Of a stretch of DNA of 64,000 bases, positions 2,651 to 51,711 are shown in pieces (position 1 is the stretch's first letter; every line of letters begins with the position of its first letter). The translations under genes and the position numbers were made by a program. The notes under the pieces were generated by a model. It did no database searches and was not told the origin of the DNA. It saw only the letters and a program-made list of their open reading frames with translations. Origin of the DNA: Terriglobia bacterium (GTDB taxonomy: Bacteria > Acidobacteriota > Terriglobia > JAJPHL01 > JAPKYU01). The DNA lies in the NCBI GenBank assembly GCA_965206645.1, contig CBDBKE010000003.1, forward strand, positions 1 to 64,000, given 5' to 3'.

Positions 2651-3106
2651 GGCGTTGTTGCGTAATTCGCGCTCGCGGCGAACCGGGCCGAGAAGCTCAT
2701 CCGCCTCAGTACACGCGCTCCGATCGTGGCATTCCAAGCTCCGCCATCCGGTTCAGCACAGCGCACTTGATCGCGGCTTCGACTTTTTGGTTCTTGACCG
2801 TGCGGGCCGAGAGGCTTACCCCGAGTATCGCCTTGTACCGTGAGACCGCATTCTCCGCCACGCTCTGGCGAGTGCAGCCACTCGACTTCCGCCACTCATA
2901 ACGGCCCTGCGTCCTAATACGCCGGAGATGGGTATCACGCATCGCACGCCACGGAGGCGGATGAGAGTCTCGGCTGCATCGTGCATTGCGTCGCGGCAAG
3001 ATCGTCACGATAGCGTCGTGCTGGAGCACGGCCTCGTAGCAGGAACCCGTGTCGTAGGCCCGGTCTGCGGAGACTTGCCCGATCGAACCAGGAGTCTTAG
3101 ACAGCA
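2651..3106 (-). mobile_element. Truncated IS5/IS903-group copy (3' part only)
   Basis: Essentially identical to 810-1265 including the terminal IR. Ends at a GCA junction with the repeat module. Confidence 0.9.
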
Positions 3107-3880
3107 GCAGTTCATGTTCATTCTCCTTGTCGAAAGGATCGGATCGCGGCGGGGACTAGCCCCGCCGCTCTCTGATGCGCGTCGCACTAGGATTCTGCCT
3201 GAGGCTCTTCTGCCTGCTGAAGCTCGAAGATACGCGAGTGGGCCTGATCGGCCACTTTGGCGAGCAGCAACAGGTCGTTGCGACTGAAGCTCTGCGTGCT
3301 CTTCCATTCCTCGCCGTCCTTGTAGAGACGGGAGAAGGTGACATTGTGCCGCGTGCGGCCGTCGGTTCCGTTCGGCCAAATCGCAGCCTTGACGCGACCG
3401 ATGCGGACTTCAGAGATGGGTTTGGGGTTAGCCATGATGTGTTTCCTCCTGAAAGTTTAAGGGTTTGTGAGCGTTTCCGCTCACCCGCAAATGGCGGAAA
3501 CGGCCAAACCCTGACACGGGAGGAACAGCGCCGCCGAAGCCAGTGACGGGCAGGGCCGACAAGGGCAAGAGCGAGTGCCAGACGCCTGCCAGGCGAGGGG
3601 ACCGTTCTGGCGCGAGCCTTGCGTCGGAACAAAGCGGAACCAGCGAAGGCCAGCGGCTAATGGCGCAACCCCACACCCGTTCTCCGGTCGTAGGCGGCAA
3701 GTCTGATGGGGGAATCGCAACCGGAACGGGGCACCTGGAACCGGACCGCTATCCTCCGGCGAATGGAACGCAGCGCGAAGGAAATTGCAGGATGTATTCT
3801 TGCCAAAGTGAACGGTATGGGGCCACAAGCTTCATTTCAGCAGGAATCCTCGCCAGGGCAACACGCGCATCAGCGGGGGC
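3107..3880. repeat. Dispersed module copy A (82-aa ORF + ~440-nt conserved structured non-coding region)
   Basis: Aligns over its whole length with 29007-29778 and with 44085-46110 (IS-interrupted). Confidence 0.9.
3187..3435 (-). CDS. Conserved 82-aa protein, putative small ssDNA-binding beta-sheet protein
   Basis: Strong RBS AGGAGG and an intact frame in all three copies. Sequence KPISEVRIGRVKAAIW...HNVTFSRLYKDGEEWKSTQSF...DLLLLAKVA. Function is inferred only. Confidence 0.7.
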   Translation of the reverse strand: MANPKPISEVRIGRVKAAIWPNGTDGRTRHNVTFSRLYKDGEEWKSTQSFSRNDLLLLAKVADQAHSRIFELQQAEEPQAES

Positions 3881-3904
3881 ATCCCCACCTGCCGCCAGCC
3901 GACC

Positions 3905-4090
3905 TCATTTGCAAGCTCCAATTATATAGGCTGCGATCCAGTCTCCTGGCTCAGCGATCATCTGACGGCGGGTTGCGCTACACGCTGTCTTGACGCGCCG
4001 ATGGGCTGATACCGGCACGTCGACACGGAGCCGCTTTGTCGGCTCATGGGCCTTCGCCTGCTGGACGTTCTTCCGTGAAGGTTCTTCCAC
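3905..4090 (-). CDS. Possible ribbon-helix-helix (ParG-like) protein or remnant
   Basis: PTKRLRVDVPVSAHRRVKTAC fits the RHH beta-helix pattern. Short, and ends are uncertain. Confidence 0.4.
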   Translation of the reverse strand: MEEPSRKNVQQAKAHEPTKRLRVDVPVSAHRRVKTACSATRRQMIAEPGDWIAAYIIGACK

Positions 4091-4265
4091 AGGGTGCGGG
4101 GCGTGGACCCGACAGGGTGATTGTTACCCCTGCCACATGTCAGCGGAGACTATTCTGCAGCGAATCGAATAGTCGTCGGTCCCTTGAATAGATTCTGAGG
4201 GGCCCCGGATTTCTGAACTGAGATCAGGGTGCCTCTTGCGGGCTTTACAGGCCTTGGGATAGCTC

Positions 4266-4300
4266 TTGACAAGGCCGCATTACAATAGTATTGTTGTAAT
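4266..4300 (+). promoter_or_regulatory. Sigma70-type promoter with overlapping palindromic operator; likely leaderless transcript
   Basis: TTGACA (4266-4271), 17 bp, TATTGT (4289-4294). ATTACAA-N8-TTGTAAT palindrome at 4279-4300. ATG at 4301. Confidence 0.7.
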
Positions 4301-4780
4301 ATGCTTCCAGGGCTCGTCACTTTGGAAGGATCGCCTTGGGCAGTTCTGCCGCCGAGTGTACACCAGGCTGATCTTGATGAGGTTGAGACCACATTTGCTA
4401 CGAACACGTGGCGGCGCGATCTGTTCAACGGCTTGGTGGAGGCCGCGGGACGGCTTTGGTCAGCTGGGTGTTTGATAATCTACCTGGACGGAAGCTATGT
4501 GACGGGAAAGCTGCGGCCAAGAGACTTCGATGTCTGTTGGGATCCCGTCGGGGTCGATCACAGCAAGCTCGACCCTATTTTTCTTGATTTCAACAATGGC
4601 CGAGCTGCGCAGAAAGCGGCATTCAAGGGAGAGTTTTTCCCATCGTCCATGACGTGCGCAGATGTGAGCCAGACATTTGTTGAGTTTTTGCAATTGGATC
4701 GTTTCACCGGCAAAAAGAAAGGAATCGTTTCTGTTTCGCTTTCGGCCGATCCGGTTGTTTTGCGAAAGGGGCAGCCATGA
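4301..4780 (+). CDS. Pol-beta superfamily nucleotidyltransferase-like protein (DUF6932-like)
   Basis: hG[GS]...DhD signature in YLDGSYVTGKLRPRDFDVCWD. Confidence 0.75.
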   Translation: MLPGLVTLEGSPWAVLPPSVHQADLDEVETTFATNTWRRDLFNGLVEAAGRLWSAGCLIIYLDGSYVTGKLRPRDFDVCWDPVGVDHSKLDPIFLDFNNGRAAQKAAFKGEFFPSSMTCADVSQTFVEFLQLDRFTGKKKGIVSVSLSADPVVLRKGQP

Positions 4781-6054
4781 TTTACAGCACAAAACAATAC
4801 CGCGTATCAAGCACGGAACTCGCAAAGCTGAAGACTGCATTGTCGGCTGCGGAGGGTCGGGAAGCGGATCAGCTGTGGCTGAAGCAGGCCGAAATCAATG
4901 CGCTCAAGAGTCAGATCGCGGAGATCGAGGTGGAACTCTCGGAGTACAAACTACTCAAGTCCGGACAGATTTCTTTCTCGAAGACCTATGCTCTCGAAGA
5001 ACTGCCGCACGTGCTTGTGCAGGCTCGGATCGCGGCTGGCATGAACCAGACGAATCTCGCTAAGAAGCTCGATATGAGGCCGCAGCAGATACAGCGATAC
5101 GAAGCAACCGACTACATGGGCGCGAGCCTCGGCAGATTAATCGAAGTCTCCCGTGCGCTTGGCGTCAAGACCTCTGGAATGTTCGAGGGAGCCGAACAGG
5201 CCGGCAGCTCCGTATTCGTGTGGGGCGATGCAGATAATATCGTCTGGGGTCAGCTCCCATACAGGGAGATGATCAAGCGCAAATGGTTCGATGTACCGCG
5301 AAACGCGAACCAGTTAGAGAAAGCCAAAGAATACTTCCTCCGTGCTGCGGGTCCGCAATTTGCGACGGCGTACCATCGAAAGAAGATGCGCAGCGGAAAC
5401 GTGCCGAACGAGTACGCACTATTGGCTTGGCAGGCGCGCATCCTGGAGCGTGCACGAGACCTCGCAACGCATAACGAGCTTGCCGAGTTCGAGCCGGATG
5501 ATCGTTGGCTACCGGAGTTGGTAAACCTGACAAGGTTCAAAGATGGCGCGAAGCGTGCGAGCCGACTACTCGCGGAGAAAGGTATCGCTTTCATCATTGA
5601 ACGGGATCTTCCTGGATCATATCTCGATGGTGCGGCCATGCTCGGCGACGCAGAACGGCCGGTTATTGGCCTCACGCTTCGATATGACCGTTTGGACAAT
5701 TTCTGGTTCGTGCTACTCCACGAACTTGGTCACGTATTCCTGCATCTGCTAGACGGGCTGCGCTATGATTTCTTCGATGAGGAGAGCGCATCAGACACCG
5801 ATACCATTGAGGCCGAAGCGGATCAATTCGCGCTGAACGCGCTAATCCCTGAAGGCCTTTGGGAGCGATGCTTGTCGCGCTTCGCGCTTTCCGAGGAAGC
5901 GGTGCGCATCGACGCTGAGAATCTCGGCATTCATCCGAACATCATCGCAGGCCGCATTCGCAAAGAGCGTGGGAACTACACAATTCTAAGCGATCTCGTC
6001 GGTCAGAATCAGGTCCGCACACAATTCGAGGATGCGGTTAATGATCTTGACTAG
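4777..6054 (+). CDS. XRE HTH + ImmA/IrrE zinc metallopeptidase
   Basis: HTH in ARIAAGMNQTNLAKKL...QQIQRYE. HExxH in FWFVLLHELGHV and downstream EAEADQFA. ATGA overlap with the upstream gene. Confidence 0.9.
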   Translation: MIYSTKQYRVSSTELAKLKTALSAAEGREADQLWLKQAEINALKSQIAEIEVELSEYKLLKSGQISFSKTYALEELPHVLVQARIAAGMNQTNLAKKLDMRPQQIQRYEATDYMGASLGRLIEVSRALGVKTSGMFEGAEQAGSSVFVWGDADNIVWGQLPYREMIKRKWFDVPRNANQLEKAKEYFLRAAGPQFATAYHRKKMRSGNVPNEYALLAWQARILERARDLATHNELAEFEPDDRWLPELVNLTRFKDGAKRASRLLAEKGIAFIIERDLPGSYLDGAAMLGDAERPVIGLTLRYDRLDNFWFVLLHELGHVFLHLLDGLRYDFFDEESASDTDTIEAEADQFALNALIPEGLWERCLSRFALSEEAVRIDAENLGIHPNIIAGRIRKERGNYTILSDLVGQNQVRTQFEDAVNDLD

Positions 6055-7126
6055 CGACACGTATGTGCCCGCCCTTCGGTGGCGGCAGGGTGAATACCAA
6101 GCCCTCCTCCGCCTTACCGACCCGGTCAAGGATCGAATCGTGCCGTCCATCACCATTCCAGCAATTGAGTTTGATTTCGAGGAATGGCGGCCGAAGAAAT
6201 CCGCCCAGGAGCACGTCCATCCCTTTGCAGCCCGCTACAAATCGAAGTGGGGTAAGCGGTCGGCATGGGTCGGGGTGCACAAGAGTATCGTCCAGAAGCC
6301 CATGGATGATGGTCGAGATATTTTCACTTACGTTTTTGAAGAATTGCGAGCGTTCGATGCGAATGCCGTCCCCGCAATCCCCCTCAACGTAGATGGAAAT
6401 ACGGTCCGGGCAGTCGCGGCCATTGTGAAGAGGGACGGTCTTGGAGTGGCCATATCAGTTCGGCTCGAAGACCTGATGAAACCCAATCCGGATGCGCAGG
6501 TGCGAGCTGTGGCATCTTCGCTTGGTGTCAAGCTACCGAATACTGATCTGATCGTTGACTTGGCTGCCCCAAATTTCGAGCCGTATGGGGCATTCTCCAA
6601 CGCCATGATTGTGACCTTGCTCAAATTAAGCGCTCTGCAGGCGTATCGAAATTTGGTCTTGATCGGGACAGCGATGCCCGAGACGTTTAGGGATGTTGCG
6701 AAGGGTACCGATGAAATTCCGCGCCATGATTGGCTATTTTATCAGACCCTGATGGAAAGACTGCCCTCCGGGATGAGGCGCCCTAATTTCGGCGACTACA
6801 CGATCGTCCATCCCGAATTCACGGCGGGCGACATGCGCATAATCAAGCCAGCAGCTAAGATCGTCTACACGACGCCGCGTAGTTGGTCGGTGCGCAAGGG
6901 CGGAGCGTTTCGGGACGATCCCAAGCAGATGCATGATTACTGCGCGGATCTTGTCAGCAAGAACATTTTCAAGGGGCCGGGATATTCAAGCGGTGATAAC
7001 TACATCGCGAAATGCGCCGCACGGCAGGAAGGCCCTAGCAATCTGACACGATGGAAGGAGGTGGCGATCAATCACCACATCACGCATGTGCTGGATGATC
7101 TCGCCACACTTGGCGGCGCGCCATGA
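6041..7126 (+). CDS. Beta-family protein (phage P4 beta / sce7725-like)
   Basis: N-terminal YVPALRWRQGEYQAL, internal FGDYTIVHP, C-terminal SSGDNYI...WKEVAINHHI. Confidence 0.8.
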   Translation: MILTSDTYVPALRWRQGEYQALLRLTDPVKDRIVPSITIPAIEFDFEEWRPKKSAQEHVHPFAARYKSKWGKRSAWVGVHKSIVQKPMDDGRDIFTYVFEELRAFDANAVPAIPLNVDGNTVRAVAAIVKRDGLGVAISVRLEDLMKPNPDAQVRAVASSLGVKLPNTDLIVDLAAPNFEPYGAFSNAMIVTLLKLSALQAYRNLVLIGTAMPETFRDVAKGTDEIPRHDWLFYQTLMERLPSGMRRPNFGDYTIVHPEFTAGDMRIIKPAAKIVYTTPRSWSVRKGGAFRDDPKQMHDYCADLVSKNIFKGPGYSSGDNYIAKCAARQEGPSNLTRWKEVAINHHITHVLDDLATLGGAP

Positions 7127-24017: not shown

Positions 24018-25103
24018 TTACCGGCTCAACCCAGCCTCGCGTTGGAGCTTCTGCGCGTGTTGTTCCGTGGATTGCTTCGGCGTCTGGCTGATCTGCGGCC
24101 CGCGAGCATGAGAATATTGGTGGCTCAACTCCGCCGCCGTCTTCTCCTTGACCGGCGCTTCGCGCTCGTGCTCGACCGCACGATCCATCAGGTAATTGGT
24201 CATCTGTTGCGCGTCCCGCGCCGCTCTATGAATCTCGTGCGGGTCTTTTTCCAGGACCGCAACCCAATTCTCGACGTAGGCCGCGCCTCGCTGCGGGTCA
24301 TGCCCCACGCCCACGCGCTCCCCCGTCATCATGGCGCTGATCTCGGCACGCAATTCCTCGCGGGCGTACTCCGGCGATCCAAAGCCCTTGTCCAGTCCAT
24401 CCTTGAGCGTGTCGCGGTTCATGCGGTCCGGATGCCCGGTCGAGTGGCCGCATTCGTGAAGCGCCGTTTGGTAGTAGCCGTTGCGCGTCGGGAATTGGGA
24501 CGGCTCCGGGAGCACCACCTTGTCTTCGGCGATCCGATAGTAGGCCCGATCTCCGGGGACGTGCTCGACCCTCGGCCCGCTGGCCTCAATCACCTTCTCC
24601 GCATCGCGGTGGGCGTCCCATTCGGGCCGCGCCTGTCGAGAGCGCGGCTTCAACTCCAATCCATCGACTTGCTCGACGTTGAACACGGTGTACTGCTTAC
24701 AGATGGGATGGGAACGCTGCTCTTCTTCGTAGATCGTCTTGCCGTCCTTGTCCTTGAGCACCTTGCCCTGCTCGTCCTTTGCGGGCCGCGCCGTCCGATC
24801 CGTGAAAAACAAGACCTGCGTCCCTTTCTCGCCTTTGCGAACCTGCCCGCCCGCCGCTTGGATCTGGTTGTAGGTACCCCAGCGGTTATCGCCGTGGCCC
24901 TGACGGATGCCCCGGCTCATCAGGTAGAGGCTGTTCCCGCCGGTGTAGGATTTGCCGGTCGAGAGGTTCTCCGGGCTGCTCTGCTCCCCCGGCTTCCACG
25001 GCTTCTGCCATGGCGCCACGCCCGCCTTGATTTGTTCGATGAGTTCCCCGCTGACTTTCTCGGCGTAGTCCTCGCTGCGCCGCCAGAACGACTTTGTTTC
25101 CAT
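24018..25103 (-). CDS. ardC: ArdC antirestriction ssDNA-binding/zincin protein
   Basis: APWQKPW, YTGGNSLYL, GGQVRKGEKG, VFNVEQ, LHECGHSTGH, YAREELRAE. Confidence 0.93.
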   Translation of the reverse strand: METKSFWRRSEDYAEKVSGELIEQIKAGVAPWQKPWKPGEQSSPENLSTGKSYTGGNSLYLMSRGIRQGHGDNRWGTYNQIQAAGGQVRKGEKGTQVLFFTDRTARPAKDEQGKVLKDKDGKTIYEEEQRSHPICKQYTVFNVEQVDGLELKPRSRQARPEWDAHRDAEKVIEASGPRVEHVPGDRAYYRIAEDKVVLPEPSQFPTRNGYYQTALHECGHSTGHPDRMNRDTLKDGLDKGFGSPEYAREELRAEISAMMTGERVGVGHDPQRGAAYVENWVAVLEKDPHEIHRAARDAQQMTNYLMDRAVEHEREAPVKEKTAAELSHQYSHARGPQISQTPKQSTEQHAQKLQREAGLSR

Positions 25104-26550: not shown

Positions 26551-27873
26551 CTATTCCTGAGACATCCTCTCTGGAACCGGCACCACCGGAAGCGTCGTGA
26601 AGATGCGCGTGCCGGGGTCCATTTCCAGGGCCACGGCGGTAAACAGATCCCCCCCTGGCGCACTGCAGCGCACCGACCCTGCGAAGTCGGACGTATCGGT
26701 GCCGGGGAACGCCTGGTCGATGAGCCAGGCCGTCTGCCCGTTGGCCTCCAGAGGGATGCTCGCGCCGTCGAGCAGCACACCCTCTCGCATCAAGTCGCAG
26801 TGCACCAACCCCGCACTCGATTCCAGGTTGTGGAGCGCGACCCCCGTCGTGATTCCTCCCTCCTGGCGGCGCACCGGGAAGAGGGCGTCGCTGACGGGCG
26901 GGCTGGCTCCCACCCCGGCCACTCCGAGGTCGGGGTGCTCAAACCGGAGCATCCCGCCGATGGGACCCTCCGAGACCACCCGCACCGATCCCGACACCAG
27001 CGCCCCTCGCCCGTGGGTCGAGATCGTGAGTACTCCCAGCGGCTCCATCTCGGTGCGGACCGTCAGAGCGCCGTCCTCGGTGATCTCCAGATCGCCCGTG
27101 ATGTCCACCACCGATTCGGCGGCAATCGGGTTGCCCTCGGTGTCGTAGAAATAAATCTCGGGACGGCTCGGAAGGATGTCCGTATGAAAGGGGGTGGGGG
27201 CGGGACGGCTCGGCTGGATGGACAGATTCAAGAACACCAGATCGGTGATCCAAGTCCCGTTGGCGAAATGCGCAAAATCCAGGACCGTCTCCCCGCCCCC
27301 GCCTCCCGTCCGGTCCACCGGCACCACCGAAAGCGTGTTAAAGATGCGCTGGGTGGCATCCATCTCCACGGCGATGGCGGTGAACCGTCTGCTACCGAGC
27401 ACGGTGCAGCGCACCGACCCCAGGAAATCGGACGTATCGGTCGTGGAGAACGCCTCTTCGATGAACCAGGAAGCCTGCCCGTTGGCCTCCAGAGGAATCT
27501 CCACCTCTTCGAGCGAGACGCCCCCGCTCATCAATCGGCAGCTCACCCCCATCGCTTCCGATCCCAGGTTGTGGAGCGCCGTCGCCGTGCGGATTCCTCC
27601 CTCCTGGCGGCGGGCCGGGAACAGGACATCCCGGACGGGCGGGCTGGCTCCTACCCCGGCCACCCCGATCTCTGGGACGCCATAGCGCACGCCGCCGCCG
27701 AGGGGACCGTCCGAGAGGACCTTCACCGATCCCGACACCAGCTCGCCTTGCCCGTGGGTTGAAATCGTGAGTTCCCCCAGCGGCTCCATCTCCGTCCGGA
27801 CGGTCAGGCCTCCGTCCTCGGTGACCTCCAGATCGACCGTCACGTCCACCACCGATGCGGGGTCAATGAGATG
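26551..27873 (-). pseudogene. C-terminal part of a repeat-containing putative surface protein, 5'-truncated by a MITE
   Basis: Two homologous units (VDITGDLEITEDGALTVRTEMEPLG...FTTLPVVPV). The frame is open up to the MITE at 27874. Confidence 0.7.
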
Positions 27874-29006: not shown

Positions 29007-29778
29007 GCAGTTCATGTTCATTCTCCTTGTCGAAAGGATCGGATCGCGGCGGGGATTGCCCCGCCGCTCTCTGATGCGCGTCGCACTAGGATTCTGCCTG
29101 AGGCTCTTCTGCCTGCTGAAGCTCGAAGATGCGTGAGTGGGCCTGATCGGCCACTTTGGCAAGCAGCAACAGGTCGTTGCGACTGAAGCTCTGTGTGCTC
29201 TTCCATTCATCGCCGTCCTTGTAGAGACGGGAGAAGGTAACATTGTGCCGCGTGCGGCCTTCGGTTTCGTTCGGCCAAATCGCAGCCTTGATGCGACCGA
29301 TGCGGACTTCAGAGATGGGTTTGGGGTTAGCCATGATGTGTTTCCTCCTGAAAGTTTAAGGGTTTGTGAGCGTTTCCGCTCACCCGCCAATGGCGGAAAC
29401 GGCCAAACCCTGACACGGGAGGAACAGCGCCGCCAAGCCAGTGACGGGCAGGGCCGACAAGGGCAAGAGGGAGTGACAGACGCCCACCAGGCGAGGGGAC
29501 CGTTCTGGCGCGAGACTTGCGTCGGAACAAACCGGAGCCAGCGAGGGCCAGCGGCAAATGGCGCAACCCCACATCCGTTTTCCTGTCGTAGGCGGCAAGC
29601 CTGCTTGGGGAATCGCAACCGGGACGGGGCACCTGGAACCGGACCGTTATCCCCCGGCGAATGGACCGCAGTGCGAAGGAAATTGCAGGATGGATTCTTG
29701 CCAAAGTGAACGGTGTGGGGCCACAAGCTTCATTACAGCAGGAAGCCTCGCCAGGGCAACACGCGCATCAACGGGGGA
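29007..29778. repeat. Dispersed module copy B
   Basis: Collinear with 3107-3880, with scattered substitutions. Confidence 0.9.
29086..29334 (-). CDS. Conserved 82-aa protein, copy B
   Basis: Differs from copy A at 4 residues (V/I, G/E, D/E, E/D). Confidence 0.7.
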   Translation of the reverse strand: MANPKPISEVRIGRIKAAIWPNETEGRTRHNVTFSRLYKDGDEWKSTQSFSRNDLLLLAKVADQAHSRIFELQQAEEPQAES

Positions 29779-30555: not shown

Positions 30556-31698
30556 ATGACGCTGCGGCTCATACATACGTCGGACTGGCAGATCGGGAAG
30601 GTGTTTCGGTTCGTCGATAACGCGACGATGGGGCTGCTACAGGAAGCGCGATTACGGGCGATCACCCGCCTTGGTGAGCTTGCCGGGGAGAAGGGTGCCC
30701 AGCACATACTGGTCGCCGGCGATGTCTATGACATGAAAGAATTGTCGCCGCGCTCGCTCAACCAGCCGCTTGAGCGCATGCGCAATTTTGCCGGCGTGCA
30801 CTGGCACCTGATGCCGGGAAATCACGATCACTACCGTCCGAACGGGCTTTGGGATCAGCTTCGCCGCAAGGGCCTGCCCGCCAATGTGCATGTTCATACC
30901 GCGCTAGAGCCGGCACTCTTTGAGGACGAGTCGTTCGCGCTATTACCGGCGCCACTGCATCATCGGCGCATGCTGAATGATCCGACCGTTTATATGGATG
31001 AGGCGGACCTGCCTGACGGTCTTATGCGCGTAGGGCTTGCCCACGGCACCGTCACCGGCTTCGGGTCCGACGACAAGGATGTTCCGAACTATATCGCCCC
31101 AGACCGTCCCGCGCGGGCCGGCCTGTCATATCTCGCCCTTGGCGACTGGCACGGCCAGAAGAAGATCAACGACCGCTGCTGGTACAGCGGCACGCCGGAA
31201 ACAGACGCCTTCGACGTGATCGACGGCGGTCAAGCCCTTTTCGTGGAAATCGAGGGACCGGGAGCGGCGCCGGCGGTGACGCCGCTGGCGACCGGCCACT
31301 ATACGTGGGACCGTCATTCGGAGCAGGTTGGCGGTCGGTTCGATATCGACCATCTTGCTGAAAAGCTGCGGGGCATGGCGGACGATCTTGACCGCGTGCT
31401 GATTCATCTGGCGGTCGAGGGCGCGCTGTCCCTGGAGGACCGCCAGTATTTCCAAGATGAGATTGTTGATGGTGTTTCAGCGGCGTTCTGTTTCATGCGT
31501 GTTGATGACCGGCGCCTGTTCCCGCGCCCCACACCCGAAGACCTTGATCAGATTGATCGTGGTGGTTTTGTGCGCACAGCCGCTGACGAACTCAAACGAT
31601 TAACCGAAGAAGGCGGTGATGCCGAGCGCGACATCGCCGCCGAAGCCCTGCAGCGGCTTTATATCGAGCATATGAAGCTACAGGCGGGGCAGCGATGA
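30556..31698 (+). CDS. Mre11/SbcD-family metallophosphoesterase nuclease
   Basis: HTSDWQIG, AGDVYD, PGNHD, LAHG, LALGDWHG, YSGTPE. Confidence 0.92.
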   Translation: MTLRLIHTSDWQIGKVFRFVDNATMGLLQEARLRAITRLGELAGEKGAQHILVAGDVYDMKELSPRSLNQPLERMRNFAGVHWHLMPGNHDHYRPNGLWDQLRRKGLPANVHVHTALEPALFEDESFALLPAPLHHRRMLNDPTVYMDEADLPDGLMRVGLAHGTVTGFGSDDKDVPNYIAPDRPARAGLSYLALGDWHGQKKINDRCWYSGTPETDAFDVIDGGQALFVEIEGPGAAPAVTPLATGHYTWDRHSEQVGGRFDIDHLAEKLRGMADDLDRVLIHLAVEGALSLEDRQYFQDEIVDGVSAAFCFMRVDDRRLFPRPTPEDLDQIDRGGFVRTAADELKRLTEEGGDAERDIAAEALQRLYIEHMKLQAGQR

Positions 31699-34403
31699 AA
31701 CTGCGATCCCTTGCCGTCAACCAGTTCAAGAAATTCACGGTGCCGATGCGGCTCGACGACATCGAGAACGGCCTGAATGTCGTGGTCGGCCCCAATGAGA
31801 TGGGCAAATCAACCCTTCTCGATGCCCTGCGCGCGGCCCTCTTCGAAAAATACAGCTCAAAGGCCCAGCCCATCGTCGCCTTACAGAATGATCGCAACCA
31901 GGCCGGGCCGGTTGTCGAACTAGCATTCGAGCTTGATGACGGCGTGTATCGGGTGACTAAGAGGTTTGTAAAAAAGCCCTATGCCCACCTGTCATGTCCG
32001 GACGGGCGCACGCTTGAAGGTGATACTGCCGAAGACACGCTGCGGAGTCTTCTCGGCTTTGACGAACCGGGCAAGACCGGTGCAAAGGCGGAAACGCTCG
32101 GCATGTGGAATGTCCTCTGGGTACAGCAGGGGCAGTCCTTCGGCGCGCTCGATCTTCCCGAAAGTGCCCGATCGAACCTGCACAGCGCCCTGGAATCCGA
32201 AGTCGGCACCGTCCTCGGTGGCCGCCGCGGGCGTGCTTTGCCGCAGGTGATCGAGAAACAGCTTGGCGAACTGGTCACAAGCAACAGCAAGCCGCGAGGC
32301 GCATACAAGGACCTCATTGAGAAAACGGACGCTTTGCAGAGCGAGCTTGAGGGCCTGAGCACGCGGCGGCACGAACTTGCCAAAACGCTTGATGACCTTG
32401 AAGAAGCGCAGGAAAAGCTGGCACGCTTGTCCGCCGGCGACCGCGACCAGGCCGACCAGACGGAACTGACCGAAGCGCGCAAAAGGCACGCACAACTGAC
32501 CGAGCTAGAAGCGCGCATCGCAGCCGCCGCCAGTGACCTGGAACTGAAAAAACGTAATCTTGAGCAAGCCAACAATGCACAAACGGAACGTGCTGGCCTT
32601 AAGGAAACTATTACTGCGGAAGAAAAGGCCGTTGAACAAGCCGGGCAGCGGCTGAAAAACGTACGCCAGCATGAAAAGGACGCCCGGTCGCAACTTGATG
32701 CGTTGCGCGCCGGTGTGCGTGAAACCGAGGCGGCAGTCACCCAAGCTGACGGTGTCGTTTCACGGCAGCGCCGCACACTGGCCGCCGTGGAACGGCAGGC
32801 GCGGATTCGCGAGTTGGAGAGCCGCTGCGGTAAAGCGCAGGCCGCTGAAAAACGTCAACACGAGGTCCAGCAGGGCGCCGCCGCCATCCTGGTTACGGAC
32901 GAGGTAATTGAAGCGATACGCGGTGCGGCCAAGGGGCTGGAGACTGTTGAAAGCCGCCTTAACGCCGCCGCTACCCGCATCGTTTTTGATATGACCCCGG
33001 AGGCTCTGTCCGGCATCGAAATTGACGGTCAGGCGTTGTCGGCCGAGCAGCCTTCGGTTCAGGCCGTCGAGCCGGTAACAATCGCGATCCCCGATCACGG
33101 CCGAATCACGATTGAGCCGGCCATCAAGGACCGGGACAAGTTACTTGGTCAGCAGCGGGACACTAAGGCCACGCTGAAGGACGCGTTGCAGGCGGGTGGC
33201 ATCAAGACCGTCAATGATGCTGAAGATCAGTACACCCGGCGTCAGAAGCTCCTGCAGGCGGCGGAGCTTGCCCGGCAGGAGGCAGAACTGCACGCCCCGG
33301 CCACAGACGATCATGACGCCGGAGCGCAGGCGCTTTCCGACTATATCGAGGGTTTTCGAAAAATCCTGACCCGCGAGATGGCCGACCTCGACGCGGAGAA
33401 ATTGCCCGAACACGCGGAAGCCGAAGCAGAATTCCGGGCCGCTGTGGAGCACTCCGAAGAGGCACGGCGTGCTGTGGTCACGGCACGGGCCGCACTTGCC
33501 GGCCCGGAGAAGACTTTGAGCCATTTCCAAACCGAACGTGTCACCGTCAAAGTGCGGTATGACGACGGCAAGGAGCGACTTGAAAGGCTCCGGCGTCAGC
33601 TCGCGGACGCGGAACAGGAGCTTTCTGACGATCAGCTTCAGGCAAGAATAGATGCCGCCCAGGCCGAATTGTCAGAGCAGGAAACCGCCGTCGCAGGACT
33701 TGAGGCGCAACGCACAGACGAAACGATCCCGCAGTTGGAGGCTCGCACTACGCGTCTTGACAGGGCTATACAGGACAGGCGGGACAAGCCCGGCAATCTC
33801 AAGGAGAAGATTGCCGGGCTCCGGTCGCATGTCGAAGCGCTGGAAGGTGCCGGGCTTGACGAAGCCATTCAGCAAAAGGCGCGTGAGCTAGAATTCTGCG
33901 AGGAAGAACGTCGCCGCACTGCGCGCGAGGTGCAGGTTCTCAGTCTCTTGCTGTCAACGCTGCGTGCTGCCGAGCAGGATGCCAAGGAACGCTATTTGTC
34001 GCCGGTGATTAATCGCGTCCGGCCTTATTTGCAGCTCCTGTTTCCCGGTGCCGAAATCACGATCGACGAGAATCTGCACATCGTCGGCGTGGTCAGAGAA
34101 GCAGGCTACGAGGAAGCCTTTCATCATTTGAGCATGGGAACCCAGGAACAGATCGCCGTTCTGATCCGGCTCGCGTTTGCGGAGATGCTGGTCGAACAGG
34201 GGCATCCGGCAACCGTCATTCTTGATGATGCGCTTGTGTTCTCCGATGACCGGCGGGTGAGCCGCATGTTCGACATCCTCAATATGGCTGCGCGGAACGT
34301 CCAGGTGATCATCTTTACGTGCCGGGAGCGACTGTTCGAGGAACTTGGCGGTAGGCAATTGTCGTTGCTGCCCGGAAGCAGTGAAGAGCTGGTATCGGCA
34401 TGA
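31695..34403 (+). CDS. Rad50/SbcC-like (YhaN-type) coiled-coil ATPase
   Basis: GPNEMGKST, long coiled coil, LSMGTQEQ signature, ILDDALVFSD. Confidence 0.9.
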   Translation: MKLRSLAVNQFKKFTVPMRLDDIENGLNVVVGPNEMGKSTLLDALRAALFEKYSSKAQPIVALQNDRNQAGPVVELAFELDDGVYRVTKRFVKKPYAHLSCPDGRTLEGDTAEDTLRSLLGFDEPGKTGAKAETLGMWNVLWVQQGQSFGALDLPESARSNLHSALESEVGTVLGGRRGRALPQVIEKQLGELVTSNSKPRGAYKDLIEKTDALQSELEGLSTRRHELAKTLDDLEEAQEKLARLSAGDRDQADQTELTEARKRHAQLTELEARIAAAASDLELKKRNLEQANNAQTERAGLKETITAEEKAVEQAGQRLKNVRQHEKDARSQLDALRAGVRETEAAVTQADGVVSRQRRTLAAVERQARIRELESRCGKAQAAEKRQHEVQQGAAAILVTDEVIEAIRGAAKGLETVESRLNAAATRIVFDMTPEALSGIEIDGQALSAEQPSVQAVEPVTIAIPDHGRITIEPAIKDRDKLLGQQRDTKATLKDALQAGGIKTVNDAEDQYTRRQKLLQAAELARQEAELHAPATDDHDAGAQALSDYIEGFRKILTREMADLDAEKLPEHAEAEAEFRAAVEHSEEARRAVVTARAALAGPEKTLSHFQTERVTVKVRYDDGKERLERLRRQLADAEQELSDDQLQARIDAAQAELSEQETAVAGLEAQRTDETIPQLEARTTRLDRAIQDRRDKPGNLKEKIAGLRSHVEALEGAGLDEAIQQKARELEFCEEERRRTAREVQVLSLLLSTLRAAEQDAKERYLSPVINRVRPYLQLLFPGAEITIDENLHIVGVVREAGYEEAFHHLSMGTQEQIAVLIRLAFAEMLVEQGHPATVILDDALVFSDDRRVSRMFDILNMAARNVQVIIFTCRERLFEELGGRQLSLLPGSSEELVSA

Positions 34404-34422
34404 ATTGAGCAGGGGAGCCGTT

Positions 34423-36364
34423 ATGAGAATATCGTCTGTTCGCATTGAGAACTTCAGATCATTTAAGGACGAAACGCTGCCGCTGAACAACTATGCGTGC
34501 CTGGTTGGCTCGAACGGTGCTGGCAAATCGACGGTACTTACAGCCCTCAACGTCTTTTTTCGGGAGTCCGAGAATCTACCTACCGATCTGAGCCAGTTGG
34601 ACCAGGAGGATTTTCACTGCAAGCACACCGACAAGCCGATCCAGATTACCGTCACATTCACTGACCTTGATGACGAGGCCCAGGAAGACTTTTCTGACTA
34701 TGTGCGGCAGGGTCAGCTTGTTGTCTCTGCTGTTGCCACGTTCGACGGTGCCACGGGGAAGGCACAGGTCAAACAATACGGACAGCGCATCGGCATGCGC
34801 GCGTTTGCGCCATTCTTCGAAGCGGCGGATGCGGGCAAGAAGGTATTGGAGTTGAAGGAGATTTATGCCGGCCTTCGCGAAACCTGCCCAGACCTTTCGG
34901 CGCCCGGCACCAAAGACGCCATGATCCATGGCTTTGCACGATTTCGAAGCAGCGCGGCCGGGCGAATGCGAGCTTATCCCTAGCGAGGATCAGTTCTACG
35001 GTTTCTCTAAAGGCGCCAATCGGCTCGCCAAGCATATCCAGTGGGTATACGTCCCGGCGGTGAAAGATGCGACATCCGAGCAAGTCGAAGCGCGGAACTC
35101 GGCTCTCGGCAGACTTCTCGCCCGCACCGTCCGTTCAAAGACCAATTTTGATGAGACGGTGAAGGCCTTGCGAGCGGAGATGCAGCAGCAATATCAGGCT
35201 CTTCTCGATGGCAACCAGCACGTCCTTGATGATATCTCCTCGGCTCTTCAGATGCGGATTTCAGAATGGGCGCATCCCGATGCGCGATTGCGCTTGCAGT
35301 GGAAGCAGGACCCCGACAAATCCGTGCGCGTTGAAGAGCCATGGGCTCACATTCTTGCAGGTGAAGGCGATTTCGAAGGGGAACTCGCACGCTTCGGCCA
35401 CGGGCTTCAGCGGTCATACCTTCTTGCCCTGCTACAGGAACTTGCAGGCACGGATGCTGCAGGAGGCCCCACACTGATACTCGCCTGCGAGGAACCAGAA
35501 CTTTATCAGCACCCGCCGCAGGCGCGTCACCTCGCCGCCGTATTAAATAAACTCAGCCGTAGCAACTCGCAGGTCATCGTCTCCACCCACGACCCATTGT
35601 TCGTATCTGGTGAAGGTTTTGAAGACGTGCGGATGGTACGCAAAGACGCCGGTAGCCCATGTTCGTCGGTTTCCCACATGTCTTTTTCTGAGATCGCGCA
35701 ATCTGTTGCAGCGGCTACCGGCGAACAGCCTGTCAAGCCAAAAGGCGCTCTTGCGAAGGTCCATCAAGCCTTGCAGCCGGCTCTTAATGAGATGTTTTTT
35801 ACCCGCCGGCTTGTTCTGGTCGAAGGTCGAGAGGATGTAGCCTATATTCTTGCGTACCTCAATCTACTCGAAAAGTCAGAAGAATATCGCCGCATGGGTT
35901 GTCATATCGTCGCTGCGAACGGAAAGAGCGAGCTGTTGCAGCCATTGGTCATTGCGAAGCATATGAGAATACCGACTTATCTCGTCTTTGATGCTGATGC
36001 GGACAAGCCCGATAAGTATGGCAGGAGAGCCGAGCATGAAAAAGACAACAAGGCGATTCTGACGCTCGTCAACAAGCCGAACGAAGAGCCGATGCCGACT
36101 CAAACAATCTGGGGCGATGGCTTCACCATCTGGCATGCCGATATTGGTGCCGTTGTCGAAGCGGAGATTGGGAAGGAGGACTGGGAAACATTTCGTGCCG
36201 AGGCCGATAAGCGTTACGGGCATGCGGGCGGACTCAGGAAGAATTCTCTACATATTGGTGCGAGCCTCGCTTTTGCATGGGAGGCGGACAAGCGTTCGGA
36301 CAGCCTCGAACAGCTTTGTACCGCTATTTTGTCCTCGGGTAACAATGTGCCCTGGGGGCAGTAA
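34423..36364 (+). pseudogene. OLD-family ATP-dependent nuclease (ABC ATPase + Toprim), frameshifted near 34928
   Basis: IENFRSF and GSNGAGKST, then in the second frame GHGLQR, EEPELYQHP, STH, VLVEGRED and FDAD. Confidence 0.85.
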
Positions 36365-36789: not shown

Positions 36790-36821
36790 AGTTCGCGGGG
36801 TTGTTCTCTGCTGCCTAGCCT

Positions 36822-37495
36822 TGGCCTGACCGGCCCTTTTTGTACCAGCTGAAGTGAGAGAGAATCTCACGAAGGAGGAAGCTGGAGATGCCGATCAGGA
36901 AGTACAAGGCGGAACAGATTGTAACCGTGCTGCGGCAGATCGAAGTGCAGATGGCAAATGGGAAGACCGCGCCGCAGGCGTGCAAGGAAGCTGGCATCCA
37001 CACCCAGACCTGTTACCGCTGGCGGAAGGAATACGGCGGACTCAAGCTAGACCAAGCGAAGCGGCTGAAGGAACTCGAGAAAGAGAACTCTCGGCTCAAG
37101 CGGTTGGTGGCCGAGCTTTCCCTGGAGAAGCAGGTTTTGCGGGATGTGGCGCAGGGAAACTTGTAAGCCCTGAGCGGCGACGTTGTGCGGTGGAGCGGGC
37201 ACGGGGGAAGTATGGCCTGTCGGAACGGCATGCCTGCCGGCTGCTGGGGCAATGGCGAGGGACACAACGATACGAGCCGAATCCTGTGCTGGACGAAGAT
37301 GGCCTCACCCGAGCGATCGTTGCCCTGGCGACGCAGTACGGGCGCTACGGCTACCGGAGGATCGCGGCCCTGCTGCGGGGTGCAGGCTGGCCAGTGGGCA
37401 AGGATCGGGTGCAGCGGATCTGGCGGCGGGAGGGGCTGAAAGTGCCGCAAAAGCAAAGACCCCGGGGATGGTTGTGGTTGAACGCGGTCCGGTCA
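36822..37495 (+). mobile_element. Internally deleted IS3-family element
   Basis: TGGCCTGACCGG left end, orfA 36888..37166, GGGAAAC slippery site and partial orfB joined to CGGTCCGGTCA. 4-bp TSD GCCT on both sides. Confidence 0.88.
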
Positions 37496-43870: not shown

Positions 43871-44132
43871 GTGCAGAACTTCTTTGCATCATCAAGTGGC
43901 ACTGGTGCATGAATCGGCATAAGCAAGCACGCTGGAAACGCTTGTGAAACTGCAGGTTGGCTTATTCCAGGCTTGTTCTGGCTTAACCAAACGCAGACTG
44001 AGCCGCCCGCAATTCATATTCAGCGTAATGTAAAGCAGGCTCTGTTCAACCATCAAGACGTGTCAGGCTCACTTGTGAAGGTTCGGAGAGCGGCGGGTAC
44101 CGGCCCCGCCGCTCTCCGATGCCTGCCGCACA

Positions 44133-44381
44133 CTAGGACTCCGCCTCCGGCTGTTCTTCCTGCTGAAGCTCGAAGATGCGCGAGCGGGCCTGATCGGCCA
44201 CTTTCGCCAGCACCAACAGGTCGTTGCGACCGAAGCTCTGCGTCCTCCTCCATGCATCGCCGTCCTTGTAGAGACGGGAGAAGGTGACATTGTGCCTCGT
44301 TCGGCCTCCGGTTTCGTTCGACCAAACGGTAGCCTTGACGCGACCGATACGGACTTCAGCAACGGGTTTGGAGTTAGCCAT
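44133..44381 (-). CDS. Conserved 82-aa protein, copy C
   Basis: MANSKPVAEVRIGRVKATVW...SRLYKDGDAW, same length, frame intact. Confidence 0.7.
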   Translation of the reverse strand: MANSKPVAEVRIGRVKATVWSNETGGRTRHNVTFSRLYKDGDAWRRTQSFGRNDLLVLAKVADQARSRIFELQQEEQPEAES

Positions 44382-44544
44382 GATCTGTTTCCTCCTGTGA
44401 AGTTAAGGGTTTGTGAGCGTTTCCGCTCACCCCCGAATGGCGGAAACGGCCAAACCCTGACACGGGAGGAACAGCGCCACCGAAGCCGGTGACGGGCAGA
44501 GCCGACAAGGGCAACGGCGAGTGCCAGACGCCGGAAGGCGAGGG

Positions 44545-45824
44545 TGACCTGCCTGGCGATTTCCGGACCAGCTGAAGCCTGAGAGAATGGCGCCCTCGGA
44601 GAAACGAGGGAGCCATGAAGAAGACCCGGTTTACCGAAGAGCAGATGGTGACGATCCTCCGCGAGGCCGATCAGCGGCCCGTTCCGGAGGTGGCCAAAAA
44701 GAACGGCGTCAGCGCCCAGACGCTCTACGCCTGGCGGAAACACTTCGGCACGTTGGAGCCCGCCGATGTGAAGCGGCTGCGGCAGCTCGAGCAGGAGAAC
44801 GGCCGGCTGAAAAAGATGGTGGCCGATCGAGATCTGGAGATCGACGTGCTCAAGGAGATCACCCGAAAAAAATGGTAGGCGCACGCGTGCGCCGGCCGCA
44901 GGTCGCGTATGCACGTGCACGCGGTCTGTCGGGTCGCCGCGCGTGCGCCTTGCTCTCCGTCGCACGGTCCACGCTGGGCTACCAGTCGCGGCTGGTCGAC
45001 CGGGATGCCCCGGCGCTGGCCGCGATGCGTCGTCTGGCGGCGCAGTATCCGCGGTACGGCTATCGCCGGATTCGGATTTTCCTAAAACGCGAAGGGCACA
45101 CGATGAGCACGGACCGGACCCATCGCCTCTGGCGCCAGGCGGGGTTGCAGGTGCCTCGGCGGCGGCCGCGGCGCCGGGTCGCCCTGAGCCGGCCCCGCCC
45201 GGTGCCCGCCACTGCGGTCAATCACGTCTGGGCGTACGACTTCGTGTTCGACACCTGCGCGAATGGGCAGACGCTCAAGTGCCTCACCGTCGTCGACGAA
45301 TGGACCCGCGAGTCACTCGCGATCGACGTGGCCGGCGGCATTCGGTCCGGGCGCGTTATCGAGGTGCTCACGCAGCTCGTGAGCGTCCACGGAGCCCCAC
45401 GTTACCTCCGGTCCGACAACGGCCCCGAGTTTGTTGCGGGTGCGATTCTCCGGTGGCTGCTCCAGGCGCAGATCGAAACCGCGCTCATCGAGCCGGGGAA
45501 GCCGTGGCAGAATGCGACCGACGAATCGTTCAACGGGAAGTTCCGCGACGAGTATCTGAGCCTGCAGTGGTTTCGGAACCGCGTGGACGCGAAGGTGGGG
45601 ATCGAGCAATGGCGACGGCACTACAACGACGTGCGACCGCACTCGAGCCTTGGCTATCTGACGCCAGCCGAGTTCAAAGCGCAGCTCCGTGCTGGCTCGG
45701 ATGACGGTGGGCGCTCGCCGGCGATGCCGGCTCACGCTGACCAAGAAGAACACGAGAGCGACTTAACCATGCCGACTGGCGCTGTTCTCCAGTAATCGGT
45801 GGTCCGAAGAAAGCCGGCAGGTCA
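44545..45824 (+). mobile_element. Complete IS3-family element (orfA 44615..44878, orfB to 45795)
   Basis: TGACCTGCC...GGCAGGTCA ends, 4-bp TSD AGGG, A7 frameshift site, WAYDF / SDNGPEF / ESFNGKFRDE. Confidence 0.95.
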
Positions 45825-46110
45825 AGGGGACCCGTTCTGGCGCAAGCCGTGCGTCGGAACCAACCGGAACCGGTGAAGGCCAGCGGCAAATGGCGCAACC
45901 CCATACCCGGCTTCCGGTCGGAGGCGGCGAGCCCGATTGGGGAATTGCAACCGGGACGGGGTACCTGGAACCGGACGCGCCATGCTCCGGCGAATGGAAC
46001 GCAGAGCGATGGGAATGGCAGGATAGATTCTTGCCAAACTGAACGGTGTTGGCCCACAAGCTTCATTTCAGCAGGAAGCCTCGCCAGGATAACACGCGCA
46101 TCAGCGAGGG

Positions 46111-51170: not shown

Positions 51171-51236
51171 TGGCCCCCCCCCTGGATCACCGGCACCTGT
51201 GCAAAACTTCGCAGCGATTGAGCTTGTAGGCCGCCC

Positions 51237-51711
51237 TGACCTGACCGGCACTTTTTGTACCAAGTGGAAAGAGAGAGAATCCACTTGAGGAGGAAGTGAG
51301 GTCATGCCGACAAGGAGTTACAAGCCGGAGCAGATTGTAGCGGTGCTACGGCAGATAGAAGTGCAGATGGGGAACGGGAAGACTGCGCCCCAAGCCTGCA
51401 AAGAAGCTGGAATCCACACCCAAACCTACTACCGGTGGCGGAAGGAATACGGCGGGCTGAAGGTGGTGCAGGCAAAACGGCTAAAGGAGTTGGAGAAGGA
51501 AAACACGCGGCTGAAGCGGTTGGTAGCGGAGCTTTCTCTGGAGAAGCAGGTGCTGCGGGATGTGGCACAGGGAAACTTCTGAGCCTGAGCGGCGGCGTTG
51601 TGCGGTGGAGCGTGCGTGGGAGCAACACGGGTTGTCGGAACGGCATGCCTGCCGGCTGCTGGGGCAATGGCGAGGGACACAACGATACGAGCCGATTCAT
51701 CGGGTGGACGA
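51237..51711 (+). mobile_element. Truncated IS3 copy (left end + orfA 51304..51582)
   Basis: Matches the 5' part of 46814-48063. Confidence 0.9.

Follow-up and report, generated by a model that had tools for sequence, protein, structure and literature searches.

The virion RNA polymerase of phage N4 reads hairpin promoters on a single-stranded template, phage T7 carries RNase III sites in the form of imperfect hairpins between its early genes, and FinP is an antisense RNA. The tnpA leader of IS200 combines an end hairpin stopping outside transcription, a hairpin that hides the ribosome-binding site (RBS), and one small open reading frame (ORF). On conjugative plasmids, the closest described systems are Frpo and ssi, the single-strand promoters of the IncF and IncI plasmids, including F Frpo1 and Frpo2 (PMC9849209 and PMC11541004), and the conjugation operon of pLS20, whose 456-nt leader carries a zipper-type attenuator ending in an intrinsic terminator, a transcriptional switch (PMC13401043). 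The present analysis concerns a module found on the first 64 kb of contig C3 (CBDBKE010000003.1) in the 4.4 Mb genome of a Terriglobia bacterium, a stretch of 64,000 nt which is called the window below. Each window copy of the module consists of a minus-strand gene for a protein of 82 amino acids (aa) together with the conserved non-coding DNA upstream of it. The analysis gives good support for a covarying leader of two hairpins, D1 and D2, which precedes conjugative establishment genes, and the module is a member of a leader-cassette family that is widespread among acidobacterial conjugative elements and has a diverged counterpart in Phycisphaerae.

The main features of the first window copy are given below, where R1 and R2 denote the covariance models of D1 and D2.

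3187..3435, minus strand: 82-aa gene, copy 1 (P0001), orphan family
3440..3527: D1, three-tier hairpin (R1, 73.1 bits at 3433-3532)
3556..3618: D2, branched hairpin (R2, 77.7 bits at 3555-3629)
3630..3950: distal upstream region, non-coding, with conservation falling with distance and without supported stems

The two hairpins next to the gene

The 82-aa ORF was accepted as a real gene because its variation was biased to the third codon position (41, against 28 and 25 at the other two), its indels were all of 3 nt, and homologues could be found. A total of 1324 homologues of the protein were obtained, and 80 of these loci were studied as relatives; they belong to Acidobacteriota (Acidiferrales, Terriglobia, and Bryobacterales), Verrucomicrobiota, and Planctomycetota.

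An earlier note on this DNA had described an element of about 440 nt that folds into successive stems on the template strand of the gene. The proximal stems listed there (TGTTTCCTCC/GGAGGAACA, AGGGTTTG/CAAACCCT, and CGTTTCCGC/GCGGAAACG) are real and form the single hairpin D1. In its outer stem, the Shine-Dalgarno (SD) sequence (minus strand 3450..3445) is paired with an anti-SD (3519-3525); a middle stem GGGTTTG/CAAACCC and an inner stem CGTTTCCGC/GCGGAAACG, of conserved sequence, follow, and the loop, read as mRNA, contains a conserved GTGAGCG. Searching with R1 revealed, at E <1e-6, 70 matches distributed over 31 sources; every one of them lay on the gene strand. The hairpin ends 5-9 nt short of the start codon, and start codons lie at the 3' end of the R1 matches. 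Among 66 distinct D1 sequences, changes on both sides could be observed in 20 of 25 pairs, while slid controls gave only 5-12 such pairs and none of 500 shuffles reached any of the five measures of covariation. The outer helix showed compensatory change in 8 of its 9 pairs, with 72.5% of cells paired. The pairing of SD and anti-SD was retained in the 66 distinct sequences, with compensatory changes beside the SD.

The stems CCGAC..GTGCCAGA/TCTGGCGC..GTCGG and the CGCC-loop-GGCG, which had been listed separately, were confirmed as one branched hairpin, D2 (3556-3618). It consists of P1 (CCGAC/GTCGG), P2 (GCAAG/CTTGC), and P3 (GCCAGA/TCTGGC), of which P3 closes a junction holding a small hairpin and the CGCC-loop-GGCG hairpin. 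R2 produced 30 matches at E <1e-3 across 81 sources, again all on the gene strand. In 29 distinct D2 sequences, 16 of 28 pairs showed compensatory change; 0 of 500 shuffles were as good on four of the five measures, while the fifth was reached by 17 of 500. The covariance analysis, which the earlier note had proposed as a check, thus found D1 and D2 both covarying beyond shuffled controls across relatives, in alignments that were fitted to their own models and so somewhat favour structure. In 22 of the 29 distinct sequences, the D2 arm on the template strand has the sequence nTGACAGAC, which faces a conserved mismatch; in one relative locus (L054) this arm fully matches the -35 consensus. Since both arms are each constrained in sequence, recognition of D2 by a protein is suggested. 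At some Terriglobia loci, D2 and D1 are also present upstream of the second gene of the unit.

The extent of the structure is smaller than proposed. The entire 445-nt upstream region folds like its shuffles on either strand and in either chemistry (z -0.2 to -1.3), and supported structure is limited to about 190 nt next to the gene, where each of the two hairpins takes up about 75-90 nt. In a sample of 15 copies from this genome and five further loci, with copy 1 as the reference, the proximal 195 nt showed 95-96% identity among these 20 close copies, against 94% for the ORF; identity was 87% at -330..-196 and 75% at -494..-331 relative to the start codon. The distal region lacks codon periodicity (59/55/54) and contains numerous indels of 1-2 nt. 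Consensus folding of the distal 250-320 nt, run without a control, was weak and yielded no supported structure, and the distal stems CCCCA/TGGGG, CCGG/CCGG, and GCAGGA/TCTTGC of the earlier note were not recovered in consensus folds. A plus-strand ORF in this region (ATG 3651, open to 3929) was considered as coding and ruled out by the absent periodicity and the frame-breaking indels.

Outside the Acidobacteriota, leaders of the Phycisphaerales are strongly structured and contain weak D1-like matches upstream of the gene. Among 31 non-redundant leaders from Verrucomicrobiota and other Planctomycetota, for which start-codon calls are unreliable, the leaders were not clearly structured except those of Phycisphaerales, and the template strand had the lower energy in 20 of the 31. 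A search of Rfam release 15 with the window and four related loci, which the earlier note had also proposed, gave no match at the gathering threshold and only chance-level rows at E up to 10. Among the papers listed in full-text searches, which did not take in the supplementary Frpo-candidate tables of the Nature 2024 paper, no description of such hairpins in these phyla was found.

Conjugative setting, folding strand, and mode of action

The genes of the window that accompany copy 2 of the module follow on the minus strand in the order copy 2, an orphan repeat gene, ArdC (24018-25103), VirB4-like, TrbI, coupling protein, VirB11-like, and integrase, all co-directional. The secretion system is of the Trb/VirB type. 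In the F plasmid, leading genes, the origin of transfer (oriT), and tra genes are likewise laid out co-directionally. The 82-aa gene stands first in the gene arrays of six Bryobacterales loci, where 4-8 copies of D1 per locus precede 4-8 successive genes, always on the gene strand and each time ending at a start codon. The array genes with D1 include NADAR (5.1e-25) and DUF3560 (7.1e-33), while the remaining genes are without a Pfam family. In these arrays, as little as 40-44 nt may separate a stop codon from the hairpin that follows. In one of them (L036), two same-strand genes (3620-4267 and 4621-5787) precede the 82-aa gene; they code for a 215-aa membrane protein that is VirB8/TrbF-like by eye only and a 388-aa protein without a Pfam family.

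Under RNA parameters, the template strand of the gene (the plus strand of the window) had the lower folding energy in 70 of 74 distinct D1 sequences, by a mean of 4.8 kcal/mol, and in 25 of 29 distinct D2 sequences, by a mean of 3.9 kcal/mol, counts that overstate independence as the hairpin sequences are related. Composition-keeping shuffles gave 2.3 (D1) and 2.2 (D2) kcal/mol, so that about half of the asymmetry is due to base composition, and none of 20 shuffled-set means reached the observed values. When DNA parameters were used in silico, 10 of 10 pairs had the lower energy on the template strand (z -2.5 to -4.9), and for D2 the z values were -2.5 to -3.0 on the template against -1.1 to -2.0 on the sense strand. 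In copy 1, D1 folded at z -3.70 on the plus strand (0 of 200 shuffles as good) and -2.65 on the minus strand, and D2 at z -2.80 and -1.75. The sense strand is C-rich. As positive controls, the template strands of F Frpo1 and Frpo2 were favoured by 37 and 21 kcal/mol (shuffles 9.5 and 11.3). The asymmetry toward the plus strand that the earlier note had claimed is therefore upheld by the energies. Its supporting argument, that mismatches are G-T on the plus strand and A-C on the minus strand, fared less evenly: the strand preference stands through the energies, while the wobble counts alone are contradictory between the two hairpins, with sense G-U against A-C cells of 62 versus 73 in D1, a count that depends on an alignment register ambiguous in the SD stem, and 50 versus 19 in D2.

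We tentatively favour the reading that the leader is an Frpo-like single-stranded DNA (ssDNA) element of the entry stage that doubles as an SD-occluding silencer in mRNA. Action as ssDNA is favoured because of the setting and the Frpo-like strand signature, and the likeness would be one of function and not of family because there is no homology to Frpo and no recognisable -35/-10. The hairpins would act on the transferred single strand, which would be the template strand of the gene and the plus strand of the window, and D1 and D2 on that strand would serve as an entry-stage expression signal in the role that Frpo and ssi have in F and ColIb. In a full-length mRNA derived from the duplex, D1 (about -38 kcal/mol as RNA) would occlude the SD and leave the gene silent in established cells. 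A host polymerase of other specificity, a transferred protein, or the 82-aa protein itself are candidate readers of the hairpins. The earlier proposal of an Frpo-like ssDNA promoter or origin thus agrees with the setting, the strand signature, and the lack of an Rfam match; its description of the element as unusually large does not, and the SD is always buried.

The rival with the greatest weight is a leader that works purely in mRNA, an account that we consider nearly as likely. Here D1 would hide the SD until it is opened or cut (e.g. by RNase III), or until a dedicated protein such as the 82-aa product acts, D2 would be a protein-binding or stability domain, and the array genes would be co-transcribed or read from an upstream promoter. 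The retained SD:anti-SD pairing with its compensatory changes in the outer helix agrees with this, as do the short gaps between stop codons and hairpins, the lack of a promoter-like site in any leader, and the G-U excess on the sense strand of D2. Structured leaders also precede the first gene of known conjugation operons, e.g. the zipper attenuator of pLS20 (PMC13401043). The folding data speak against it: the hairpins favour the template strand, whereas the sense strand was favoured in 39 of 48 tRNAs of this genome, and the sense mismatches of the hairpins are mainly pyrimidine-pyrimidine or C-A, the most destabilising in RNA.

RNA libraries bear on the same question. Seven runs contain parts of the module, and four runs from two studies were examined. 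Contigs from these four runs connect D1 both with the ORF and with D2 (e.g. 3383-3538, with 1 difference, and 3458-3628), as an mRNA leader would predict; such contigs give neither strand nor ends, and RNA libraries can contain carried-over DNA. A full-length leader RNA probably exists, since metatranscriptome contigs carry ORF, D1, and D2 in one piece. Contig depth dropped past about 3657 in all four runs, from which no transcript start was inferred because the drop mirrors the fall in conservation together with the 88% likeness cut-off.

Transcription signals were scanned as well. A sigma-70 -35/-10 pair at 9 of 12 matches was found in none of 70 leaders of 240 nt on either strand, nor in the window. 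At 8 of 12 matches, seven sense and two antisense sites appeared in the 70 leaders, not in excess of shuffles (6.2). The identical scan also found no pair in F Frpo1 and Frpo2, which have -35-like hexamers only, on the template strand; the scan is thus uninformative and not a negative, since genuine Frpo is missed too. Any double-strand promoter would have to sit in the distal region 3630..3950, where the scan found none. No terminator site was found in 3050-4050, where the start codon, and not a T-run, comes after the D1 stem.

Several of these and other observations weigh against an Frpo-like role. The SD lies inside the stem, a feature unnecessary for an ssDNA promoter and the hallmark of translational control; the probable full-length leader RNA, the contradictory wobble counts, the compositional share of the energy asymmetry, and the relatedness of the hairpins point the same way. 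The lack of a -35/-10 pair in the leaders also counts, with a weight limited by the failure of the scan on Frpo. There are 17 modules and only 4 sets of type IV secretion system (T4SS) and ArdC genes in the genome. The polarity of the transferred strand is an assumption from the F-like gene order, as oriT, nic, and relaxase were not located.

Two further readings share parts of this evidence. The hairpins may instead prime complementary-strand synthesis on the incoming strand in the manner of ssi, without being mRNA promoters, which we hold to be improbable. The strand and context evidence applies to priming as it does to the Frpo-like reading, and Frpo itself is reportedly described as also yielding primer RNA in the title of Masai and Arai 1997. 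Each D1, however, ends at a start codon and contains an SD, neither of which is needed for priming, and up to eight priming sites per 6 kb would be excessive. Still less probable is a FinP-like antisense RNA of the folded strand, which would pair with the 82-aa mRNA at its leader and SD. The plus strand does fold better and the RNA-library contigs are compatible with either strand, but the scan found no promoter-like site on the plus strand in or beside the ORF, arrays would require one antisense promoter per gene, and nothing marks an antisense 3' end.

A more specific version of the Frpo-like reading, which we regard as unlikely, is a two-state switch in two chemistries. On the incoming strand, recognition of D1 and D2 would require no sigma-70 boxes and would start expression of each establishment gene, and the mRNA read through from the duplex would contain both arms and be translationally dead; a PUR-like 82-aa protein or a transferred protein would perhaps help in recognition. 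If true, this would be a new single-strand regulatory class outside Proteobacteria, with per-gene copies and a dedicated small protein. For the 82-aa protein, Pfam, NCBIfam, PHROGs, PDB sequences, and the ESM Atlas were searched with zero matches. Its AlphaFold2 model (pLDDT, the predicted confidence score, 87.5) has the topology E-E-E-E-H, that is, four strands and then a long helix. Comparison with a human PURA repeat gave Z 5.2 and a root-mean-square deviation of 2.8 over 62 residues, below the meaningful level, and both a PC4 homologue (Foldseek E 0.64) and a YbaB-like protein (Z 5.7) were too weak to count. A single-strand nucleic-acid binder of the PUR/PC4/Whirly class, which the model may hint at as a lead only, would be compatible with either mechanism.

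As a separate observation, copy 2 contains a 12-nt perfect complement between 29152-29163 (codons of the LAKV motif of the 82-aa gene) and 29697-29708 (distal leader), and the equivalent pair in copy 1 has, by eye, one G-T on the plus strand. The estimated chance expectation for a 12-nt complement in 950 nt is about 0.03 pairs.

Copies of the module, its boundaries, and neighbouring DNA

Self-alignment confirmed three copies in the window at about the positions given in the earlier note, with aligned segments at 3185-3484, 29084-29383 (97%), and 44131-44430 (88%). The term three-copy module understates the case, as the genome carries 17 intact copies of the ORF and one fragment; 24 DNA matches to the module were found genome-wide. 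No match to the module was found in the PLSDB plasmid collection. The further features of the window copies are as follows.

3107..3128, minus strand: SD and beginning of the unit's second gene, truncated in copy 1 by an IS5-type element (IS, insertion sequence)
3135..3183: downstream repeat arm, +4..+52 after the stop codon, including a terminator-like hairpin at 3146-3168
3862..3905: upstream repeat arm, a G+C-rich hairpin, equal to -470..-427
29086..29334, minus strand: 82-aa gene, copy 2, the copy upstream of ArdC and the T4SS in the same direction
29332..29527: D1 (29332-29431; R1, 71.1 bits) and D2 (29453-29527; R2, 79 bits) of copy 2
44133..44381, minus strand: 82-aa gene, copy 3, 78% identity to copy 1
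44379..44573: D1 (44379-44478; R1, 69.4 bits) and insertion-damaged D2 (44501-44573; R2, 32 bits, E 1.2e-4) of copy 3
45825-46110: remainder of the copy 3 leader, resuming beyond the IS3-type insertion

With the start codon as reference, homology between copies covers about -515 to about +300. Its downstream end lies anywhere from +266 to +1328, where it usually borders an IS, and in four copies homology is confined to about -460 to about +301/+320. Copy 3 is interrupted by an IS3-type insertion (rve transposase 44587-45795), and copy 1 is cut at 3107, just downstream of the gene, by an IS5-type insertion (2651-3106). The start region of the second gene continues in other copies and in a relative locus (L019).

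The earlier note had found no terminal inverted repeats, and this has to be amended, since the module is in fact flanked by a weak inverted repeat. Just after the stop codon comes a G+C-rich hairpin that lacks a T-run, and the best match of the post-stop segment to the upstream reverse complement lay at or inside -470..-427 in 14 of 17 copies of this genome (z up to 9). In L019, a perfect 26-nt inverted pair of different letters is present (score 52, z 18.5). The flanking repeat could provide insulation from outside transcription or closure of a large loop in the single strand, or could be a relic of mobility.

It was for this repeat that a discrete cassette was considered, small and mobile or recombining, bounded by hairpin-forming inverted repeats in an IS200-like layout; it was judged unlikely, at very long odds. 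Such a cassette would explain the 17 dispersed copies and their excess over the T4SS sets, and the repeat itself and the four copies of confined homology agree with it. On the other side, the 82-aa protein has no transposase family match in Pfam or NCBIfam, homology passes both repeat arms in most copies, the downstream boundary is variable and usually set by an IS, the start of the second gene is conserved past the right arm, also in L019, and relatives hold the gene in ordered arrays beside T4SS genes.

The genome as a whole is laden with IS, and IS insertions truncate most module copies. The IS5-type end (810-1265 and 2651-3106) has about 30 copies across the genome (98.7-100% identity), with a DDE_Tnp_1_5 transposase at 865-1746. 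The segment 2607-4380, which comprises the IS5 end, copy 1, and 500 nt beyond, is 100% identical over 1774 nt to C4:1979220-1980993, which suggests either a segmental duplication in the very recent past or a repeat in the assembly. Five IS3-type transposase genes are preceded by a 64-nt leader (715-778, 36818-36881, 44541-44604, 46810-46873, and 51233-51296) that contains a short hairpin and an SD and is probably the left end of the IS or a 5' untranslated region.

Neighbouring DNA of module copies includes genes of defence type. At 4777-7126, a gene for a helix-turn-helix and M78 peptidase protein and a 'Beta protein' gene flank one copy, and at 30556-36364 another is flanked by genes for a metallophosphatase, a 902-aa SMC-like ATPase, and an OLD-family nuclease. 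The ORF between the module and ArdC (26551-27852, minus strand; 433 aa) has no Pfam family, contains an internal duplication of about 740 nt (26576-26875 / 27317-27616, 74%), and has three further copies in the genome, two of them near ArdC copies. Elsewhere in the window, three tandem units of about 390 nt (40258-41393, 66-91% identity) lie within a 968-aa ORF (39325-42231) with a trypsin-like peptidase domain at its end, and a perfect 222-nt tandem duplication (57525-57968) adds 74 codons in frame to the ORF 56496-58112.

Comparison with described systems

The module shares with IS200 an upstream G+C-rich hairpin, an RBS-hiding hairpin, one small ORF, and a multicopy state. It differs in its non-transposase protein, in the extra branched hairpin D2, and in its occurrence in conjugative gene arrays, and its strand asymmetry is opposite to that of true RNAs of this genome. 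The arrays resemble T7 in having one imperfect hairpin before each gene of first-entering DNA, and N4 in that its promoters exist only as template-strand hairpins; these are phage systems with no sequence relation, and no processing or dedicated polymerase was found here. With the conjugation operon of pLS20, the locus has in common a long leader, a long imperfect stem-loop, and a small first gene of a conjugation-related operon. The differences are that the stretch from the hairpins to the start codon contains no terminator-like site here, that the stem hides the SD, that there is no homology, and that the pLS20 family resides in Gram-positive hosts.

Run without filters against 16 kb from the leading region of F, R1 and R2 gave best E values of 0.12 and 0.095, which indicates no homology. 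Early expression off an entering single strand is known in a handful of enterobacterial plasmids, where it depends on one sequence family, Frpo/ssi. The units here are about 75-90 nt long, whereas the F repeat is about 550 nt and 89% identical between copies. No -10 box is recognisable here, and a -35-like nTGACA is present on the D2 template arm in 22 of 29 sequences. In further contrast to Frpo, the SD is part of the proximal hairpin, which stops 5-9 nt short of the start codon, some lineages have one copy before every gene, and the hosts are Acidobacteriota and Phycisphaerae in place of Enterobacteria.

Even if the RNA-only account were true, the element would still be an undescribed leader family, more conserved than its gene. 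If the ssDNA reading is true, control of the entry stage by folded DNA would appear to be a general solution in conjugation, and, in phyla whose oriT and relaxases are difficult to identify, the two covariance models would become a searchable marker of leading regions with their anti-defence cargo. Occlusion of the SD by the element itself suggests how establishment genes stay silent in established cells. As in Frpo and ssi, the element is non-coding, forms hairpins, and is repeated at high identity; it precedes establishment and anti-defence genes that are co-directional with the transfer genes, with all 70 strong D1 and 30 D2 matches on the gene strand, and its template strand folds better than the sense strand. 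Unrelated in sequence, it holds an equivalent place in soil Acidobacteriota and Phycisphaerae.

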